A stretch of DNA of 64,000 nucleotides. Source: an uncultured Gammaproteobacteria bacterium (lineage in GTDB: Bacteria; Patescibacteriota; Microgenomatia; Daviesbacterales; UBA10151). The DNA is taken from contig CAYOSW010000001.1 in the NCBI GenBank assembly GCA_964406775.1, positions 10,474-74,473 of the forward strand, in the 5' to 3' direction. The position numbers and the translations under genes were made by a program. Shown in pieces: positions 2,394-27,168 of this stretch (positions are counted from its first letter, which is position 1; each line of letters starts with the position of its first letter). The notes under the pieces are model-generated. The model ran no database searches, was not told where the DNA came from, and saw only the letters and a list, made by a program, of their open reading frames with translations.

Positions 2394-5114
2394 TTAGACA
2401 TTTTGGAATTCAGGCATATTAGGAACTCCGCCAGTATTTTTAACCTCTGGAATTTCTTCTGAAGCTTTATTTACTAAAGTTTTAACCTTTTTTATTCCCT
2501 CCGGTTTTTTATAAACAATGGCATTGTTTTTTCTGGATGCTGCCATGAGTTTTTCGATCTTCTTAACATTTTTAACAACCTCTATTTTGATCGTTTCTCC
2601 GGAAAACGGTTCTTCTGACTCAATGGCTGACATCTTAATATAGAACTTGTACCTAGGAAGAGATTGTATTTCACCCTTTTCAACATAAGGGTACAGTTGG
2701 GAGAGAAGTAGCTCTTCATCTATCGGATTACCAGTTCTAAAAGTTACTACTGTCGTAACGTTTGAAAGAATAATATTCACAATACTTCTATCTTGTTGTT
2801 GAGAGGTTGATTGTTCGGCAATACAAACATCTAGTCCATACTTTCTGCCCTCGGATAACATTTTAGCAAAGGATAAAGTTGCAAAGTTTTGAAACTCATC
2901 AACATATAAATGAAATTGTTTTCTTTTCGCTTGTGGAATATCTGCCCGTTTTAATGCTGCTTGTTGGAGCTTAGTTAAAATGGTTGTTCCTAACAGTCTT
3001 GCGGTATCCTCACCTAACTTCCCTTGAGAAAAGTTACATATTAGAATTTTCCCATCTAAAATATCTCTAAAATTAATTGTTGATTTTTTCTGCTCAAGGA
3101 TTCTTTTTGCAGTAGGAGAAAAAAGAAATCTTCCAATCTTAGCTGTGACACCACTGACCATTTTAACCACCTGATAATCACCAGCTCTGCCAAACTCAAA
3201 CTTCCAGAAGTTCTTTAAGTTCTCATCTTGAAGTTTAGCAACTACTTGTTTTTGGAAGGTAGGATTATTAAGAAGATCATATAACGTAAAAATAGTTGGG
3301 CTTTCAGTTGTAAAAGCAGTATGAATAGTATTTCTTAAAATATATTCAATTCGATGAGCATTAGCATTTTCTTCTTTTGAGAATACTTTTCTAAATAAAG
3401 ATACAACTCCTTCTGCTACAACTTCTTTTTCAAGTTCTGCTTCATCCTCATCAAGCCCAGGAGTAAGCTCTAATAAGTTAATGCCTACCGGATGTTTTAA
3501 ATCAAAAGGATTGAGATAGACTAAATCATTTATTCTCTTTTCAGGTATACAAGTTAGTAAATCTTCAGAGACATCACCATGAGGATCAAGAAATGCCATC
3601 CCTGCCCCTTGCTCGATATCATGCTTAGCCATTGAAAACATTAAGGTGGTTTTTCCAGATCCAGTTCTTCCAATAATATACATATGGGTTTTTCTCTCTT
3701 CTTCAGAAAGCCCAATTATTGTTTCCGTTCCTCCATAGGTGTTTTTTCCCAGAACAACAGATAATTGTTTGTTATTCTTTAATGAAACCGGCGCAGGAAG
3801 TTCTTTGCTATGTGCTTTAATAATATTTTCTGTTTGAGTAACTCTAGTAAAAGGAAAATGATAAAGGTCGGATATTTCAGAGACTGATAAAACAGTTGGA
3901 CTACTATTAAAAGAAAAAGACAATAATCTCTTTTTAAAATTAAGAAAGAGGAACTTATTAAATCCAGAAAATGGGAAAGTCATTTTCTTTTTTAAAGATT
4001 GACTACTAGGAGTAGTAAAAATACCTAAAGAAGAATTAAAACCTCTTACTCTTTCCGATAATTCATGTTTATCTTTCATTCCGATAAGCACTCTAATTCT
4101 TGCTTCAAATAATGGCTGATCAATTTTTTCCTCAATAGCTCTCACTGCCTCTTGTTCAAAGTTAGTTAATACTCTCGCTGGCTTTTGTAGGTTCTGTGAA
4201 TTGTAATATGCCATATACTGCATTTGGGATTGTCTGGCTGCCATTTTGGCATCACCTAAATCGTTAACAACAGTCCTTAAAGCCCACCCTAAAACACCCA
4301 GGGCAATTTTAATCATGGTAATAGGAAACTTCAGAATACTTATTAATTGGGAGCTACTTAACTCATTTATATATCCCAAAGCATCTTCACCTCTTAAAAT
4401 CTTTTGTTTGATATATGCCGTGCTGTTTCTTTGAGTTGGAGATAATACTATTTGAAACGAGATGAGTTCTTGAGGAGATAATTTAGTCATCATTCCGGTA
4501 ATGTAGGCAACTGGATCATGTTCGATTAATACATTTTGTTTTTGGAGTGGATAGGCAAAATGTTTTGTTAAATCAAATTCAATAACTTTACTGTGAAAGT
4601 TCGGGAGATCTGATATTTTCTCCGGTAAATACTCATTGGCAACTTTGACACTGACTTGAGGTAGATATGAAAGCAAACTTCGCTTGAGATTATTTACTTG
4701 ATGAGGAGAGGTTCTTATTAAATATCTAATACCTTGTTTTTGCGTAGACACAATCTCACAAGCAAAAACAATCTTCTTCCCAATTACTTTATCCCAAAGT
4801 GATCGCTCCTTTCCTAAATTATGGATAACTGAGAATAATTGTTGTGTTGTATACGCTGTCTTTTCTGTAGTTGCCGGAGGTGTGAGTTCTAAAAGAATAG
4901 ATTTTTCTGTGAATGATTTTTTAAAAGAGATAACTTTACGGATTATATAGAGAAGACAAATAAAAACTATTCCAGTTAATAGAAACGGTAATAAGGAAAT
5001 TGATGCACTAGAATTTACCTGAGGAAGTGCTTTCGAGTGAAAGAATTGATTTAATAAATAATCTGCTCGTAAATGCTGGATGTCCATAAAACTACCCTTA
5101 TAGGGCAGTTTCAA
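2394..5114 (-). CDS. Type IV coupling protein-like P-loop ATPase (VirD4/TraD/TrwB family) with N-terminal TM segment and ~390-aa N-terminal extension
   Basis: TM helix 'ISLLPFLLTGIVFICLLYII'. Walker A 'IIGRTGSGKTTLMF' is followed by 'FLDPHGD' (TrwB/TraD AAD-binding signature). Walker-B-like 'HLYVDEFQNFA'. Confidence 0.65.
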   Translation of the reverse strand: MKLPYKGSFMDIQHLRADYLLNQFFHSKALPQVNSSASISLLPFLLTGIVFICLLYIIRKVISFKKSFTEKSILLELTPPATTEKTAYTTQQLFSVIHNLGKERSLWDKVIGKKIVFACEIVSTQKQGIRYLIRTSPHQVNNLKRSLLSYLPQVSVKVANEYLPEKISDLPNFHSKVIEFDLTKHFAYPLQKQNVLIEHDPVAYITGMMTKLSPQELISFQIVLSPTQRNSTAYIKQKILRGEDALGYINELSSSQLISILKFPITMIKIALGVLGWALRTVVNDLGDAKMAARQSQMQYMAYYNSQNLQKPARVLTNFEQEAVRAIEEKIDQPLFEARIRVLIGMKDKHELSERVRGFNSSLGIFTTPSSQSLKKKMTFPFSGFNKFLFLNFKKRLLSFSFNSSPTVLSVSEISDLYHFPFTRVTQTENIIKAHSKELPAPVSLKNNKQLSVVLGKNTYGGTETIIGLSEEERKTHMYIIGRTGSGKTTLMFSMAKHDIEQGAGMAFLDPHGDVSEDLLTCIPEKRINDLVYLNPFDLKHPVGINLLELTPGLDEDEAELEKEVVAEGVVSLFRKVFSKEENANAHRIEYILRNTIHTAFTTESPTIFTLYDLLNNPTFQKQVVAKLQDENLKNFWKFEFGRAGDYQVVKMVSGVTAKIGRFLFSPTAKRILEQKKSTINFRDILDGKILICNFSQGKLGEDTARLLGTTILTKLQQAALKRADIPQAKRKQFHLYVDEFQNFATLSFAKMLSEGRKYGLDVCIAEQSTSQQQDRSIVNIILSNVTTVVTFRTGNPIDEELLLSQLYPYVEKGEIQSLPRYKFYIKMSAIESEEPFSGETIKIEVVKNVKKIEKLMAASRKNNAIVYKKPEGIKKVKTLVNKASEEIPEVKNTGGVPNMPEFQNV

Positions 5115-5204
5115 AGCAACGTAAGTATATCATAAAGCTAATTCGTGCTTGACAACTATCTATATTTAGATATATACTACTATCTATATCTCGATAGTTA
5201 AGTA
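5115..5204. promoter_or_regulatory. Divergent promoter region of the island with repeated/palindromic motifs
   Basis: TTGACA (5149-5154), 18-nt spacer, TATACT (5173-5178) on the plus strand. The same hexamer reads TTGTCA-N15-TATGAT on the minus strand. Direct repeat ACTATCTATAT x2. Outer inverted repeat AACTATC...GATAGTT. Confidence 0.35.
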
Positions 5205-5639
5205 TTGAATATGCAAGCTATAAATCTATCATTATTCTCAGACGATAACTCTACAAAAACTCCTTATATTCCAAATAGTGAGAAACAAGCGAAACAAATA
5301 CCTAAAGTAGCAGAAGAACAAATATTAACACCAGTAGCAGAGATACTAGGTAAGGTTGCTGTTCAACCTCCTAAAAATATTGGACCTACTGAACTTCTCT
5401 CTCAGTCAATTAGTAACTCTTTAAATTCACTTTTTCCAGAACAACAATATGATGATAAAGATATTCAAAAAGCTAAACAAATACTTGGAGAAATTGCCAA
5501 TCAGTTTAGTCCGGAAGAATTAAAAGTGGCAGTTACTGAGATTCAATATCTGGTAAGCACTTGGATAGATGATTTTGAAAAAGAAATCTTTGATGGAAAA
5601 ACTCTAAGAGAATTATTGCATGAGAAAGGTAGTCTATGA
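5205..5639 (+). CDS. Hypothetical protein (144 aa from a TTG start; 142 aa if the ATG at 5211 is the true start), overlapping the integrase start by 4 bp (ATGA)
   Basis: Overlap suggests translational coupling with the downstream recombinase. No motif recognised. Could be an accessory or directionality factor. Confidence 0.45.
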   Translation: MNMQAINLSLFSDDNSTKTPYIPNSEKQAKQIPKVAEEQILTPVAEILGKVAVQPPKNIGPTELLSQSISNSLNSLFPEQQYDDKDIQKAKQILGEIANQFSPEELKVAVTEIQYLVSTWIDDFEKEIFDGKTLRELLHEKGSL

Positions 5640-7198
5640 ACAATATTATTCGTGATGATGGTAAAAAAGCGATTATTTACTTGAGAGTTTCTTCTGAAGA
5701 ACAAATAGATAACTTTTCTTTGGATACTCAGGAGGATATATGCCGAAAAGAAGCTCTAAAACGAGGCTATGAGGTTATTGAAGTATTCAGAGAAGAAGGT
5801 AAATCTGCTAAAAGTATTTTGGGTAGAACTGTTTTATTAAATCTACTTGAGTATTGTCGGAAGAAGAGCAATAAAGTCCAAGCTGTTTTTGTATACCGCT
5901 TAGATCGTATCTCCAGACAAACTGCTGATTATTTAGCTATTAGGAAAAAATTAGCTGAAAACGGTGCAAATATAATATCTGCTACAGAACCTACAGGGGA
6001 TAGTCCAACTGAAAAGTTAGTAGAGACTATATTAGCTGGATTTGCTCAACTGGATAATGATATTAGAAGTGAAAGAACAAAAAATGGCCTAAGAGCAAGA
6101 TTTAAAGCTGGACTCATTGGTAGGAAACCTCCAATAGGATATATTTCTCAGAGTGGTTATGCAGTAAAAGACCCTGAAACTTGGGATAATATAAAAAAGG
6201 CTTGGGATTTAATGGCAACCGGAACAAAGAGTTTAGCCGAAATGGCTAAAATTATGAATGAATGGGGAGTAAGAATAGTTACTAAGCAACAAACATATAC
6301 ATTAAGACCACAAACAGCTAATAGAATCTTCAGACAGAAATTCTACATGGGAATTGTTACTTCAGATAAATATCCGGAAGAAGTTAAAGGTCAACATATT
6401 CCTATGATTACTGAACAACAATATTATAAAGTGCAGGCAATTTTAGATGGGAGAAATGTTAATAAAGTGGCACTTGCTAAGAGAAATAGCGAAAATCCAG
6501 AATTTCCGTTGAGACGATTAGTTAAATGTTCTAAATGCGGTATGGGTTTAACTGCCGGATGGAGCAAAGGGAGAAACGCCAAGTATCCTTATTATCGTTG
6601 TGGAGGGCGTTGCGTAGCATCATCTATTAAAGTAGATGTTTTAGAAAATACTTTAATAGATCTTTTGAAACAAATTACTCCTACAAAAAAAGGACTAACT
6701 CTCTTTATTGCCTTTTTATACAAAACATACAACGAGCGACTTTCCAGATTGCAAAAGATTAATAGTGAAGCGGATGACGAAATTACACGTCTACAGACTA
6801 TGAGAAAGTTACTTGTTGAGAAAAATATTACGGGTGTTTATTCCGACGAAATATTCAAAGAACAAAACGCCATTATTGAAGACAAAATGATTCGAGCACA
6901 AGTTGTTAAAGATGATGCAACTATAGATAAATATAATATTGATGCTTTAACCAGCTTTATTAAGACATTACTGGCAGATTTAGGAGAAACGTACAAGAGA
7001 TCCAATATAAATCAGCTTCGTGTGCTGCTTGGTTCAATCTTCCCTGATGGACTAGCTTGGAACTATGAAGGCACATTGAACCATAGGATTAGCCCGATAT
7101 ATCAAGCTATTCGGGATAGTGAAAAGAATACTATCCCCTTTGGTACCGCGTACGGGAGTCGAACCCGTGATTACTGGGATGAAAACCCAGCGTCCTAA
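5636..7198 (+). CDS. Large serine recombinase (serine integrase)
   Basis: Resolvase catalytic domain 'AIIYLRVSSEEQ...VFVYRLDRISRQ'. Recombinase domain. Zinc ribbon 'CSKCG...YYRCGGRC'. Coiled-coil C-terminus. The last ~19 codons lie antisense within tRNA-Glu. Confidence 0.85.
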   Translation: MNNIIRDDGKKAIIYLRVSSEEQIDNFSLDTQEDICRKEALKRGYEVIEVFREEGKSAKSILGRTVLLNLLEYCRKKSNKVQAVFVYRLDRISRQTADYLAIRKKLAENGANIISATEPTGDSPTEKLVETILAGFAQLDNDIRSERTKNGLRARFKAGLIGRKPPIGYISQSGYAVKDPETWDNIKKAWDLMATGTKSLAEMAKIMNEWGVRIVTKQQTYTLRPQTANRIFRQKFYMGIVTSDKYPEEVKGQHIPMITEQQYYKVQAILDGRNVNKVALAKRNSENPEFPLRRLVKCSKCGMGLTAGWSKGRNAKYPYYRCGGRCVASSIKVDVLENTLIDLLKQITPTKKGLTLFIAFLYKTYNERLSRLQKINSEADDEITRLQTMRKLLVEKNITGVYSDEIFKEQNAIIEDKMIRAQVVKDDATIDKYNIDALTSFIKTLLADLGETYKRSNINQLRVLLGSIFPDGLAWNYEGTLNHRISPIYQAIRDSEKNTIPFGTAYGSRTRDYWDENPAS

Positions 7199-7216
7199 CC
7201 ACTAGACGAACGCGGC
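7141..7216 (-). tRNA. tRNA-Glu (anticodon UUC), CCA encoded
   Basis: Hand-folded. Acceptor GCCGCGU/ACGCGGU. D-stem CGUC/GACG. Anticodon stem CUGGG/CCCAG with loop UUUUCAU. T-arm ACGGG-UUCGACU-CCCGU. Discriminator A then CCA. Confidence 0.8.
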
Positions 7217-10063: not shown

Positions 10064-13000
10064 GTGAAAAGGGAACTGCAATCACCAGTACCGAATGCCC
10101 TTTACATCCCCGGCAGGGTCCACGATGCTTGCGGGGTTGGTTTTTTGGCAAACGTGAACGGCTACCGTTCAGGCCGTCTTCTTCAGGATTCTCTCATAGC
10201 TTTAGGCAGACTTTCCCACAGGGGTGCCAACGTCGGGGACACTTCTGACGGTTCGGGAATACTAATTCAGCTTCCATCGGAATTTTTTGCACTTCAGGCC
10301 GGGCGCCTGGGGCACGGTACTAGAAATTTACAGCCTGGGGATTTAGGAGTCGGGATGGTTTTTTTGCCGGGACAGGATAGACAGGCTGCGGAATCGGCAA
10401 GAGGAAGAACCGAAATAGCGTTCGCGTCGAGAAATTTACGTGTACTCGGGTGGCGCGAAGTTCCTGTCGAACCCGGAGTTCTGGGAAAAAAGGCCGGAGA
10501 TACAAAGCCTCAAATTGAGCAGATAATAATTTCCCGTCCCGAAGGAATGGATGCTAAAGCTTTTGAGAGAGAGCTTCATCTGGCAAGCAGGCTGGCGGAA
10601 AATCTTTCGTCGCAGGCGGATATTGAAGGATTATATTTTGCGTCCGTTTCCGCGCAAACTCTTACCTATAAAGCGTTAGTTGAAGGAAGCAAACTCGGCC
10701 AGTTTTATCCCGAACTATCGGATCCCCTGATGCAGATTGCTTTTGCCCAGGTTCATCAAAGATATTCAACAAACACTTTACCGAGTTGGGAAAATGCCCA
10801 GCCTTTTCAGTTCCTTGCTCATAACGGGGAAATAAATACGGTTGGTGGCAATAAAATATGGACCGCAGCCAGGGAAGCGGGGATGAGATCTCCTGTCTGG
10901 GGTGGTGCATTAGCAGACCTAAGCCCGGTCATTCGGGGCGGAGGTTCGGATTCGGCGAACTTAGATAATGTTATTAAACTCCTGACACTCTCGGGACGCT
11001 CGGTAAGCGAAGCTATGGCCATAGCTGTTCCATCAGCTTGGGAAAACGATAGTGGAATGAGCGCGCAGGAGAGAGCCTTCTTCGAGCACGGACAGCTTTT
11101 TATGAATCCCTGGGACGGACCTGCACTTTTGGTTTTTACCGACGGAACGGAAATCGGCGCAATTTTGGATCGGAACGGTTTACGGCCTGCAAGATATATG
11201 GAAACCAAAGGCGGATTGATTGCGGTTACTTCGGAAGCGGGCGTTGTGCCTGTTGATGAATCTGAAATTACCAAAAAAGGAAGGCTCGGACCGGGACAGA
11301 TGGTTATTGTCGATATTGCCGGGGGGAGGGTTAAGGAAGATGCGCAAATAAAAACGGAACTTGCCTCAAAACACCCTTACGCGCAAATTACTGGGGAGAC
11401 TATCCGCCCTTTAAGCGTTTTTACGGGCAGGACCGAACCTGATTTAAACGGCCACGAACATTATCTTCTTTATCCTCCGACTTTAAGCCAGCTCCAGATT
11501 GCCCACGGTATGACGCACGAAGATATCGAAACTGTAATTACATCTATGGCTCAGGAAGGAAAAGACCCGGTATGGTCGATGGGCAAGGATACACCTGAGG
11601 CGGCGATTTTATCCGATGTTGTGCGTCCGCTTGATGTATTTTTTAAACAGCGTTTTGCTCAGGTAACAAATCCTCCCATCGATCCTATAAGGGAGAGAGC
11701 CGTAATGTCTTTAAATACGGTATTGGGTCCCAGACCCGATATGCTTTCAACCGAAGTTTTTGACGGTACGGTTATTAAACTTGAAAGTCCGATACTTGAT
11801 GATGCTCAGCTTAAGGTTTTAAAGTCGGTTAAAGAAGGTCCCGTATCGGTTGCAACAGTCGGGACATTATTTGATATCGCCAAAGGCCCGGGAGAGCTGG
11901 AAAATGCGGTTGCCGGTCTGGTTAAGCAGGCAGAGGCTCTCGTTGATTCGGGTAAGGGGATATTGGTCTTAAGCGACAGAGGAATAACAAAAGATAAGGC
12001 TTCAATGCCGATATTGATGGCGCTCGGTGCGGTTCATCAGCATCTTATAAAAACAGGCAAGAGAATGCAGACAAGTATTGTGGTCGAGACGGGCTCTTCC
12101 TGGGATATTCACCAGCTGGCTTTGCTTGCAGGATACGGAGCAGATGCCATCAATCCCTGGCTGGCCTTTCAGACTGCGGAAGCGATAGCTGCTTCAAAAT
12201 CCGATAACGGACACGGCGACAGACTGATGAGGGAGGCGAGAGAAAAATACCGCAAGGCTGCGGAAGCAGGGCTTTTAAAGATTTTTTCCAAGATGGGAAT
12301 CTCCACTTTTGCAGGCTACCAGGGTGCCCAGATTTTTGATGCCATTGGTTTATCCCGGGACGTTGTTGATCTTTGTTTTACCGGTACTTCGTCTCCTTTA
12401 GGCGGACTGGGATTTGAACAAATAGGAGAGGACGTTATAGCTCTTCACACCCAGGCTTTTGATCACGACGGCTTATCAAAATTGCCGTTTCCGGGACTAT
12501 TTAAGTTTAACAGACAGGGTCCGGGTCCTTCGATGAGTCACGCACATTCGCCGGAAGTCTGGCGGGCACTCCAGGCTGTTGCCAGGAACGGGATTCCTGC
12601 CCACGATGGTGTCGAGCTGAAATATCAGGTTTACGCGGATAAAATTAACGGAGGTCCGGTCAGGGGACTGCGGGATTTATTGGGATTCGTTCCGCAAAAT
12701 CCGGAAATTGATATTTCTGAGGTTGAAGATGCTTTGGGGATAGTTAGAGGCAGGTTTATTTCAACCGCGATGTCGCTAGGGGCATTGGGGCCTGAAGCCT
12801 GGAAGGACCTGGCGGTTGCTATGAACCGCCTAGGCGGACGTTCCAATTCGGGAGAGGGCGGGGAAGATCCGAGATTATATCGGGATCAGCCTGAGCGGAT
12901 GGATAATAAAATTAAGCAAGTTGCTTCAGCCAGATTCGGTGTAACCGCGGAATATTTGATTATGGCTGATGAGCTGGAAATTAAAATGGCCCAGGGCGCC

Positions 13001-24894: not shown

Positions 24895-25713
24895 TTATCT
24901 TTCTGCCTCCATATCGGTTATAACCAGCGTACCACGGGCACCTGTATTAAAAGTATTCCGCACTAAAACGGGTATGCCGGAATTCATAACCGGCGTCAGG
25001 CAATCGGGATGGAGTACTTTGGCGCCGTTTTTTGCCATCTCAATCATATGATCTATCATAATTTTCTCCAAAGTCCGCGCTTCCCGGTGGAACTTCGGAT
25101 CGTGAGTCATAACACCGTCAACATCCGTCCAGTTCTCGTAAATCTCCGCACCAACTCCGCGGGCTATTATAGCACCTGTGATATCCGATCCTCCTCTTGG
25201 AAAGGTCGTTAGGTTATCCTCCAAATCAAGTCCGTAAAAACCGGGGATTACAACTTTGCCTAGGGCCTTACCCAGGATAATTCCAATTAGCGAATAGGAG
25301 ATTTCATTAACGGATCCGTCCGGGTTTATTCTGATTAGCTCGGTTGCGTCGACAAAATCGGCCTTTAATAAGTCAGCCAGCATACGGGCAGCCAGCCATT
25401 CCCCTCTTGAGGCACGGCAGGAAGGGTTGTTGAAATTAAGAGTGAAGGCCTCGAACGCTTCCGCCAGACTCGCTTCAATATCTCTCCAGCCCAAAATCCG
25501 TCCCTCCTCAAGGAATCTTCTCTCGACAGCACCCCAGTTTGCCTCTAAGAGATTGTCGGTTATCTTCCCCGGATATTTCTCGTTCTTTCCCGGTGCCGAG
25601 ACGACAATAAATTGCCTGGAAGGATCGGAATTAATAATTTGCATTACCTGGCGGATTGAAGCGGCATCAGCCATAGACGATCCGCCGAACTTTGCAACAA
25701 TTGGCTTATTCAT
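24895..25713 (-). CDS. lysC: Aspartokinase catalytic domain only (272 aa), with no ACT regulatory domains
   Basis: 'VAKFGGSSMADAASI', 'RGGSDITGAIIA', 'TDVDGVMTHDP', 'AKVLHPDCLTPVMNSGIPVLVRNTF...GTLV' align to the AK kinase domain. The protein ends where the ACT domains normally begin, and dapB follows 3 bp later. Confidence 0.7.
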   Translation of the reverse strand: MNKPIVAKFGGSSMADAASIRQVMQIINSDPSRQFIVVSAPGKNEKYPGKITDNLLEANWGAVERRFLEEGRILGWRDIEASLAEAFEAFTLNFNNPSCRASRGEWLAARMLADLLKADFVDATELIRINPDGSVNEISYSLIGIILGKALGKVVIPGFYGLDLEDNLTTFPRGGSDITGAIIARGVGAEIYENWTDVDGVMTHDPKFHREARTLEKIMIDHMIEMAKNGAKVLHPDCLTPVMNSGIPVLVRNTFNTGARGTLVITDMEAER

Positions 25714-25780
25714 ATTACGGAATGATACCTTCAGCTCGGTGCGTGGTCAAAAAATCCTGAAGTTTGTACAATTTACAAGT

Positions 25781-25804
25781 AATTTGTTAAATATTTAACA
25801 AATT
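25781..25804. promoter_or_regulatory. Perfect 24-bp palindrome AATTTGTTAAAT|ATTTAACAAATT upstream of the lysine operon (candidate operator)
   Basis: Read directly. Lies between the minus-strand terminator (25820-25860) and the lysC start. An adjacent 8-bp palindrome TTGTACAA sits at 25764-25771. Confidence 0.4.
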
Positions 25805-25819
25805 TAGGCTGATTTTGGG

Positions 25820-25860
25820 GTAAAAAAAGAGCCAGATACCTGTAATAGCAAATGGCTCTT
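25820..25860 (-). terminator. Strong intrinsic terminator on the minus strand (AAGAGCCA-N18-UGGCUCUU followed by U8)
   Basis: 8-bp stem. On the minus strand the hairpin is followed directly by TTTTTTTT. Confidence 0.6.
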
Positions 25861-26110
25861 CTATCTATTTGTTGTACCAATTACCTATATCTTTCCCTAA
25901 GGCACGTTACTCTTAAGGTCCGAACAGCAATTACACACTGTGTTCCGGTAAGTTCCGCAAACCCCTAGATAGCCGGGGTGTGCTCCGCAAGCTTTCCCGA
26001 TCGATATCATCTGACTTCTAACACTTTACCGATCTATGGTACTTAAACAGAAAATTAATTTCCGGGTTTGTGGTCCCCTTTGTCTCTTTCCTGCTCAAAC
26101 GGAGCTAACC
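25861..26110 (-). ncRNA. Candidate structured ncRNA of unknown class (~250-285 nt), or a long structured leader of the lysine operon
   Basis: ORF-free. Locally G+C-rich inside an AT-rich intergenic region. Several hairpins (CCGGAACAG-N13-CUGUUCGG, CCCC-N9-GGGG). Promoter-like TTGACT-N18-TAAAAT around 26120-26150 on the minus strand. Ends at the terminator above. No match to the L-box, RNase P P4, tmRNA or SRP motifs I could recall. Confidence 0.3.
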
Positions 26111-26398
26111 CCATTTTACTCATTTGTATAGTTAGAAAGTCAATATACTGGATGTTGTGTTAAAAGAATGATTAGACTACTAAATTAACGAGAGTTCAAT
26201 TGTAATAAGGTGTCAATTGCTTTTTTGTAATTCTTTTGCTACTAATTCAGCTACTGCACAATCACTTAGAATATCTTCATACGCAATAGTCTTATTAGAC
26301 AGATTATAAAAAAAGTTCGCAGCATCTTTAACCTCAGTATTATTTTTCAAGATTTCTATTAGAGAAAAATCCATAAGAGAATTATATCAATGTGTGTT

Positions 26399-27019
26399 TT
26401 ATTCGAATCTGCGGATAACACCGACGCATTTTCCCTGGATTTGGACTTCGCCCGTATTTACGTAAATCGGTTCCATAGCGGAGTTCGCCGGCTCCAGACG
26501 GATCCTATTGGGCTCGCGGAAGAATTTCTTCAAGGTCGCGAGCCCGGAATCCAGTAACGCAACCACTATGTCTCCGTCTGCGGCTGAGTTCTGCTCTTCG
26601 ATAATAACGTAATCACCGTCCAAAATTCCGGATTCAATCATTGAGTCGCCTTTTACCTGCAGAACATAAGATTTCTTTTTATCCGAAATCATATGCGGTG
26701 CAACATTCACGGTTGCTCCGGGATCGGTGTAGGGCATAATAGGCTGGCCGGCCGCAATATATCCAAGTAAAGGCAGCTCTATAGTACGGGGTTTAATATT
26801 AAATTCATCTAGAAGTTCAATTCCGCGTACGGTTCCTTCAAATTTCCTTATTGCACCTTTTTTAACAAGCGCCATCAGGTGTTCGTGAACGGTTGCAAGA
26901 GAGGAAAGGCCCATCGCCTCAGCAATTTCGCCTAAAGTGGGGGAGTAACCGTATTTATCAATATATTCCCTTACGAAATTTAAAATATCTTTTTGTCTTT
27001 TGTAGAGTACTGCTGGCAT
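26399..27019 (-). CDS. lexA: LexA repressor
   Basis: N-terminal wHTH. S24 peptidase domain with 'GDSM' (Ser) and 'LKKF' (Lys). Confidence 0.9.
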   Translation of the reverse strand: MPAVLYKRQKDILNFVREYIDKYGYSPTLGEIAEAMGLSSLATVHEHLMALVKKGAIRKFEGTVRGIELLDEFNIKPRTIELPLLGYIAAGQPIMPYTDPGATVNVAPHMISDKKKSYVLQVKGDSMIESGILDGDYVIIEEQNSAADGDIVVALLDSGLATLKKFFREPNRIRLEPANSAMEPIYVNTGEVQIQGKCVGVIRRFE

Positions 27020-27168
27020 TTGAGTAAAAATACTTTACCAAACAGAACCCGAATGTGTCAAGCGCATCAATCTATATCAAAATTAATTTTACCGAAGAAT
27101 CAGCATATTTCTTTTACTCTAATAACCTATAGTTGTAAAATACAGCTGCTTTTTTTATAATCACTGTT

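Follow-up and report, generated by a model that had tools for sequence, protein, structure and literature searches.

What occupies the interval of about 600 bp between lexA and the aspartokinase gene lysC on contig CAYOSW010000001.1 of an uncultured bacterium (GenBank assembly GCA_964406775.1), and is it a leader of the lysine operon or an RNA gene in its own right? We consider this for the 64,000-nucleotide stretch at positions 10,474 to 74,473 of the forward strand (hereafter the window), in which an earlier reading of the nucleotide letters alone (the sequence-only reading) had singled out positions 25820-26110 and left the choice between an unclassified noncoding RNA (ncRNA) and a lysine-operon leader. 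The first of these stands: the element is a discrete, conserved and strand-specific RNA gene whose fold is supported by covariation; it has a promoter and a terminator of its own, no conserved open reading frame (ORF) and no match in Rfam 15 or by ARAGORN. We therefore favor, as the likely explanation, a stand-alone gene at 25822-26108 on the minus strand for a structured ncRNA of ~285 nt, which would belong to a new, uncatalogued family and act in trans.

The unit is delimited consistently by nhmmer and by a covariance model, which place its ends at 25821/25822 and 26108/26109 on the minus strand, so that the coordinates first proposed bracket it almost exactly. It matches the covariance model with 255 bits (E ~2e-78) and is present in a single copy in the window. 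As had been claimed for the whole lexA-lysC interval, there is no ORF of at least 60 aa in 25799-26398, where short frames and one ORF of 53 aa (26213-26374) are all that occur, and the G+C-rich core is equally real, with a G+C content of 0.54 in 25900-25999 vs 0.26-0.34 in the flanks. The minus strand of the unit folds with -96.3 kcal/mol and a z-score of -4.0 vs a z-score of -0.67 for the plus strand; thus, folding is strand-specific.

Thirteen distinct homologous sequences were gathered from metagenomes and metagenome-assembled genomes (MAGs) and aligned (alignment A3; homologous loci bear L numbers below). They come from contigs encoding related aspartokinases and from exact-pattern scans with two conserved motifs, the latter retrieving three GTDB species genomes and six JGI metagenome contigs. 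Many of the fetched contigs show the same order of lexA, variable ORFs, a gap of 450-560 nt and lysC, with the gap aligning with the window, and each RNA-bearing locus has one copy of the RNA by both nhmmer and the covariance model. As far as sampled, the family is restricted to a Daviesbacteria-related lineage of the Patescibacteria, or candidate phyla radiation (CPR); as only synteny and exact patterns served to find homologues, it may in fact be spread more widely. With named Candidatus Daviesbacteria proteins, the BipA/TypA protein of the window organism shares 72-74% identity, and one genome with an RNA homologue is labelled Patescibacteria. Two further loci with the RNA and the synteny, L013 and L014 (GTDB CAYMRP01 and CAYNRM01), are titled "uncultured Gammaproteobacteria bacterium"; these titles look wrong, with the gene content of the window and the BipA similarity pointing to Patescibacteria. 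Outside this lineage, blastn searches of phage (INPHARED) and plasmid (PLSDB) collections return no homologue of the RNA, and three pattern scans of IMG/VR yield no true one, all 21 returned loci failing the covariance model. L027, a candidate from the IMG/VR pattern scan, proved on inspection to be a chance match.

The transcription signals that frame the unit are:

26170-26184, minus strand: conserved upstream element TTTAGTAnnCyAATC, ~30-45 nt upstream of the -35 hexamer.
26138-26143, minus strand: -35 hexamer TTGACT, with TTGAC invariant in 13 of 13 homologues and flanking bases variable.
26113-26118, minus strand: -10 hexamer TAAAAT, which is TAAGAT or TAATAT in homologues, with AGTAAnAT conserved.
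25822-25860, minus strand: intrinsic terminator with the stem AAGAGCCA/UGGCUCUU, a covarying upper stem, the loop UAUUACA and 7 U.

The promoter-like start that had been noticed, TTGACT-19-TAAAAT, is a conserved sigma-70-type promoter belonging to the RNA itself. Its hexamers and a spacer of exactly 19 nt are kept in all 13 homologues as TTGAC(A/T)-19-TAAnAT, the -35 hexamer being TTGACA in most of them, and it is because of this spacer that an automated scan misses it. The first conserved helix begins at a fixed distance, 5-8 nt past the -10 hexamer, and the transcription start is predicted at ~26106-26108. The upstream element is retained in most homologues, including L022, which has different upstream genes; its zero-mismatch match is unique in the window, and it may be a regulator site or an UP-like element of the RNA promoter. 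The RNA promoter shares no signature with the promoters of the three tRNA genes of the window. As to SOS control, the block TTGATATAGATTGAT found upstream of lexA (see below) was not found at the RNA promoter, and nothing pointed to control of the RNA by the SOS response.

At the other end, the stem strands of the terminator lie at 25860-25853 (AAGAGCCA) and, after 18 nt, at 25834-25827 (UGGCUCUU), with the U-run at 25828-25822. The AAGAGCCA-N18-UGGCUCUU hairpin described on the minus strand by the sequence-only reading is hence present, but is followed by 7 U and not by 8. Its upper stem has five pairs with compensatory changes and the hairpin is kept in all homologues; a simple terminator scan misses it since the loop limit of the scan is 8 nt.

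RNAalifold arrives at one set of helices whether given 10 or 13 sequences, and single-sequence folds of two distant homologues give this set again. The consensus comprises two domains with 76 pairs in 14 helices, 96.2% of the cells being paired over the 13 sequences (the 76 pairs include two tertiary pairings spotted by eye and a weaker third). Covariation against relatives, which had been named as a check at the outset, amounts to 28 compensatory pairs; column shuffles give 12.1 +/- 2.2, none of the 500 attaining 28, and slid controls, in which partners are moved by 1-3 columns, give 4-11. The domains and tertiary contacts, defined by RNAalifold and pair counts in the case of the domains, are:

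25982-26108, minus strand: 5' domain, a three-way junction of P1, P2 and P3.
25822-25981, minus strand: 3' domain, with P4, a long-range helix, P5, P6, the linker and the terminator.
25966-25972, minus strand: P4-loop strand CUAUCUA of a pseudoknot, pairing with the linker strand UAGAUAG.
25861-25867, minus strand: linker strand UAGAUAG of this pseudoknot, directly abutting the terminator stem.
25930-25935, minus strand: P5 loop UGUAAU, the complement of AUUACA (25846-25841) in the loop of the terminator.

In the 5' domain, P1 joins AGCUCCG (26106-26100) to CGGAGC (25987-25982) and is invariant, whereas the hairpins P2 and P3 have variable tips and five compensatory pairs each. The P3 tip ranges from 6 to ~18 nt in length and has no conserved distal motifs; the palindromic hexamers GATATCGATCGG and AAGCTT, which had stood out in the raw sequence, correspond to the P3 stem and the junction, of which the strands AGUACC and GGGAAGC are conserved. 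Mean identity in this domain is ~60%, the helices being kept nevertheless. The 3' domain includes the hairpins P4 (25978-25962), P5 (25940-25925) and P6 (25918-25895), the last with five compensatory pairs, and a long-range helix pairing UUACCG (25951-25946) with AGGUAA (25886-25881), in which L022 shows one compensatory change (CUUAUC/GAUAAU). Its mean pairwise identity of ~80% equals or exceeds that of the adjacent lysC coding DNA: between lineages the 3' domain is 71-82% identical vs 57-76% for lysC DNA, and in L015 the figures are 75% vs 57%.

The P4-linker pseudoknot is paired in 13 of 13 sequences, with a compensatory change in L004 (CUGUC/GACAG vs CUAUC/GAUAG), and the complementarity of 6 nt between the P5 loop and the terminator loop is found in 12 of 13. 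An exhaustive column scan of the linker and terminator region finds only these two pairings conserved; a third candidate, ACGUR/NAC, is weak, showing three pair types but three mismatches. The terminator hairpin is thus part of the conserved architecture, being tied into the 3' domain.

A scan of the whole window with the 4227 families of Rfam 15 at gathering score, together with permissive scans (E <= 10) of the window region and of the homologues L001, L022 and L015, finds no family at gathering score and, at E <= 10, only chance or terminator-driven matches. The Rfam check that had been proposed hence ends without a known family. The match to Thr_leader, for instance, has 16 bits vs a gathering score of 55 and covers the terminator only. 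ARAGORN detects just three tRNAs in the window and no transfer-messenger RNA (tmRNA) or tRNA-like gene in the RNA region. The earlier statement that the element fits neither the L-box, RNase P, tmRNA, signal recognition particle (SRP) RNA nor T-box consensus is borne out by the Rfam models and ARAGORN alike. Finally, no ORF is conserved across the RNA homologues.

These observations lead to the proposal that the RNA would be released as a discrete, stable transcript of ~285 nt whose folded shape would let it act in trans, be it as a specific scaffold for a protein or ligand, by catalysis or by self-assembly, and not by simple antisense pairing or as a leader of lysC. The 3' hairpin docked into the fold would probably shield the 3' end. 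A more far-reaching version, in which the RNA would represent a new complex-fold class of the CPR (Microgenomatia) lineage with a function unprecedented for bacterial ncRNAs of this size, is one we hold only tentatively and think rather unlikely; the options would be self-assembly of the RNA, a novel ribozyme, or metabolite sensing by a stand-alone RNA with the terminator in its sensing fold.

Several points weigh against a trans-acting RNA of a new family. Its transcription, ends and stability are deduced from sequence only. The family is small and closely related, with an effective sequence number of 1.65 in the covariance model, and the covariation signal therefore partly reflects a few lineages; the pairing of the P5 and terminator loops lies beyond the covariation test, as both loops are invariant, and its support is conservation only. 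The close relatives L008, L012 and L025 do not have the RNA at this locus, and in them it must be dispensable or located elsewhere. Searches with Pfam and PADLOC reveal no convincing partner among the neighboring ORFs, which vary by lineage. Last, the RNA is co-oriented with and immediately upstream of lysC in ~10 of the 13 loci, and some contribution to lysC in cis retains a small residual probability.

That last arrangement is the starting point for the reading of the RNA as a cis leader, namely a riboswitch or T-box-like sensor of the lysC-dapB-dapA-asd operon. In the window, lexA (26399-27019, minus strand; Peptidase_S24 and LexA_DNA_bind domains) is the upstream neighbor, and lysC (24895-25713, minus strand; 272 aa, without ACT domains) the downstream one, followed on the same strand by dapB, dapA, asd and two more ORFs; at homologous loci the two ORFs after asd are an aminotransferase and a pyridoxal phosphate-dependent decarboxylase of the ornithine/diaminopimelate/arginine type. 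As a leader, the folded 3' domain would stabilize the terminator in an OFF state and its release would let read-through proceed into lysC. Besides the position immediately 5' of lysC in most loci, the want of ACT regulatory domains in the aspartokinase of this clade and the tie between terminator and conserved fold speak for it. What decides against it, and renders it improbable in our judgment, includes the region between the RNA and lysC:

25714-25821, minus strand: lysC control region outside the RNA, a block common to loci with and without the RNA.

In the window this block contains a perfect palindrome of 16 bp, TGTTAAATATTTAACA (25785-25800), a TTGTACAAA motif (~25763-25771) and a promoter, TTGACC-17-TATCAT (25750-25722), that ends 8 nt before the ATG at 25713. 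Clade-wide, the ~105-115 nt from the U-run to the lysC ATG hold the perfect palindrome TGTTAAAnnTTTAACA and a (T)GTACAAA motif, followed by the promoter TTGnnn-17-TAT(C/T)AT, which ends 6-9 nt before the ATG; lysC has no Shine-Dalgarno sequence. In L012 and L025 the block follows the stop codon of lexA directly, and in L008 and L011 it precedes lysC; it is thus retained in L008, L012 and L025, where the intergenic gap measures only 90-130 nt and has no RNA; the contig of L011 ends 168 nt upstream of lysC, the available sequence being without a match to the RNA model. It also occurs at L010 and other loci, and in L007 and L024 the U-run of the RNA terminator continues straight into the lysC palindrome. 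Most simply read, lysC is leaderless and has its own regulated promoter, and the palindromic operator suggests control of the operon by a DNA-binding regulator. With no Shine-Dalgarno sequence at lysC, read-through from the RNA would yield transcripts that are translated poorly.

The converse also holds, in that the RNA is kept without lysC directly downstream in L017, where two IS30 copies intervene, and in L018 and L020, where other genes follow; in L022 phage-like genes replace lexA upstream and the RNA is intact. Thus, persistence of the RNA in altered contexts, and of the lysC promoter and operator with or without the RNA, indicate that the RNA is autonomous from lysC. In L017 (2265-4375), the two IS30-like transposase genes, of 334 and 339 aa and recognized by eye, are diverged copies in tandem that sit right past the RNA terminator and part the RNA from lysC.

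Nor does the leader reading find support in a known sensor. A systematic alignment search of the linker, the terminator 5' strand and the terminator loop reveals no conserved antiterminator, and the Lysine and T-box models of Rfam have no match at E up to 10 in four representatives. The lysine riboswitch model (RF00168) fails both at gathering score and at E <= 10 in the window and three homologues, and the topology differs as well: a three-way-junction domain plus a separate pseudoknotted domain are seen here, not five helices around a junction with a conserved core and an L2-L3 kissing contact. With the L-box the RNA shares the position upstream of the aspartokinase gene and the intrinsic terminator at its end, but it has no five-way junction, conserved J2/3 or J4/5 core or antiterminator, a separate lysC promoter follows the terminator, and RNA without lysC and lysC without RNA both occur. 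Several short resemblances by eye to the L-box, among them one to its P2 (AAGAGUA..GCCUU..GAAAGAU), have the wrong order, are unconfirmed by the model and are rejected.

For the T-box, RF00230 likewise gives no match at E <= 10 in the window and three homologues. T-box leaders are of similar size, and AGUA...GAA around a helix as well as UGGNAC shortly before the terminator recur here; in contrast, no antiterminator bulge helix can be drawn and the RNA is not co-transcribed with an amino-acid gene. The UGGNAC (A3 columns 253-258) has no conserved flanking helices, and its N is U, C or A, varying among close relatives and tracking a P6-loop base rather than the tRNA discriminator base; as for Stem I, the P3 tip is variable in length and sequence and has no distal platform. 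The supposed T-box likenesses (AGUA..GAA followed by GCA/GCU, and UGGNAC), noted by eye, were not borne out and are rejected. A leader-peptide attenuator was also considered and rejected, there being no regulatory short ORF conserved across homologues. Of the two answers first offered, the lysine-operon leader is thereby the one to fall, given the lysC promoter past the terminator, the RNA kept without lysC and the lack of a conserved antiterminator.

The short, ACT-less aspartokinase itself, presumably devoid of allosteric feedback control, defines a clade known almost only from metagenomes, with ~30 metagenomic relatives (P0001-P0030); L015, with the same synteny, has a 467-aa enzyme.

Another doubtful reading, to which we assign a similarly low probability, makes the transcript a base-pairing regulatory small RNA (sRNA), in which an unpaired stretch such as UGGUACAAAAAUAGAUAG before the terminator is the seed and the remainder a scaffold. 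An own promoter, an intrinsic terminator and conserved unpaired stretches beside a 3' hairpin are indeed the typical layout of sRNAs. However, 285 nt with 14 helices and pseudoknots are far more than a seed-type sRNA typically has, the pseudoknot takes up much of the proposed seed, and the sole complementarity with the 5' end of lysC found by inspection (CCAAUU) lacks conservation.

The interval itself raises the idea that an accessory or mobile island of variable content lies between lexA and lysC and carries the RNA as cargo. Immediately 3' of lexA, the 53-aa ORF (26213-26374, minus strand) has no match in Pfam or PADLOC, and at the same position other lineages have unrelated ORFs, which encode a B3/4-domain protein, an Exo_endo_phos protein or a coiled-coil protein of 131-176 aa. 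With unrelated ORFs per lineage at one position, the interval is a hypervariable spot. This variability, the IS30 copies and phage-like genes that abut the RNA in some loci, and the behavior of its presence and absence as a clean indel are compatible with such cargo. Yet the RNA is far more conserved than the island ORFs and always occupies the same chromosomal site, true matches are wanting in IMG/VR, the INPHARED phages and the PLSDB plasmids, PADLOC reports no notable defence matches and no flanking repeats were seen, all of which make cargo status very improbable.

Slighter still is the chance of a highly diverged CPR housekeeping RNA (RNase P, SRP, 6S or tmRNA) missed by standard models. 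The RNAs of CPR bacteria are often atypical, and the size, strong promoter and complex fold would fit; against this, neither the Rfam models of these RNAs, at E up to 10, nor ARAGORN give a match, P1 joins the 5' end to the middle of the RNA and not to the 3' end, no P4-type core, tRNA-like domain or single long hairpin with a central bubble is present, and the RNA is absent at the locus in close relatives and very narrowly distributed. Taken singly, RNase P, SRP and 6S RNA are rejected as their models do not match and their core topology differs, and tmRNA as neither ARAGORN nor Rfam matches. The short resemblances of GGAAGCA to SRP helix 8 and of CCAUAG to RNase P RNA are without a match to the models.

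The remaining candidate is a small protein, for the sequence-only reading had pointed out a frame, with justified doubt for want of a convincing ribosome-binding site, none being present:

25897-26010, minus strand: 37-codon Cys-rich frame, not a gene, being unconserved among homologues.

The notion that it encodes a small Cys-rich protein has next to no chance: the full-length frame is open only in the window and L004, in which the Cys residues are not conserved, conservation in homologous regions fails in most homologues (absent in L007, L014, L017, L019 and L026, truncated or frame-shifted in L018 and L022), and substitutions track base-pair compensation, not codon periodicity.

Elsewhere in the window, the lexA promoter region (27040-27110, minus strand) has a conserved direct-repeat block, TTGATATAGATTGAT, just upstream of TTGACA-18-TAAAGT; the block recurs upstream of lexA in L001, L004, L007, L015 and L024-L026, extra GATTGATC repeats accompany the lexA promoter in some lineages, and no canonical SOS-box palindrome was recognized there. 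At 2394-7216, the ORFs next to tRNA-Glu (7141-7216) encode a TraG/VirD4-like coupling protein of 906 aa and a 520-aa large serine recombinase, the recombinase ORF overlapping the tRNA gene in part; together they look like a mobile element integrated at a tRNA gene. A cytochrome P450 gene (7578-8942, minus strand; Pfam E = 2.6e-54) adjoins this putative element in what is apparently the genome of a CPR bacterium; to our knowledge, such genes are unusual in CPR bacteria, which are reduced and mostly fermentative.

The stand-alone RNA gene is thus a well-defined orphan class, for which the alignment and covariance model can be searched across MAGs. CPR/Patescibacteria have tiny genomes, and very few lineage-specific RNAs are known from them. 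That the core of the RNA is conserved beyond the coding DNA next to it suggests a specific biochemical task in these stripped-down organisms. The analysis also corrects an easy mis-annotation, since a structured element with a terminator 5' of lysC resembles a lysine riboswitch and is none. The novelty lies in the RNA family itself, and with its narrow distribution the general impact may be modest.

Among catalogued RNAs, a sub-threshold likeness is seen to the Ocean-VII RNA (RF03092), which gives 22 bits in L001 (3686-3720) vs a gathering score of 53.5 and 10 bits in L022 (2171-2206), with no match in the window or L015. The match covers the junction and the P3 5' strand UAAGUACCAUAGAUCAG, and the likeness extends only to the single-stranded consensus UGAGUAUCAGGGAUCAG and CAGAC, leaving the model's hairpin unmatched; it is probably due to chance, though it could reflect a shared junction motif. 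A literature search on Ocean-VII and on structured ncRNAs of CPR/Patescibacteria/Microgenomates found nothing relevant.

In kind, two comparisons are closer. The ornate large RNAs OLE, ROOL and GOLLD are, like the present RNA, lineage-restricted and elaborately folded, with functions unknown or partly known, and complementary loops mediate their higher-order assembly (PMC12286853). By analogy, and as pure speculation, the UGUAAU and AUUACA loops might link molecules of the present RNA head-to-tail; the ornate RNAs are, however, two to three times larger and show no homology to it. The closest known system in kind, again by analogy, would be the raiA motif RNA (RF03072), a stand-alone bacterial ncRNA with a pseudoknotted, complex and conserved fold and a function still unknown, named after a gene often found downstream of which it was judged not to be the cis-regulator (PMC5737381, PMC10861870). 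Both are stand-alone pseudoknotted RNAs of 200-300 nt, a likeness without homology, there being no Rfam match. Whereas the raiA motif RNA occurs in thousands of species of Bacillota and Actinobacteria, the present RNA is represented by ~13 sequences of one CPR lineage, and it differs from the raiA motif RNA in that its terminator hairpin is itself part of the conserved architecture.

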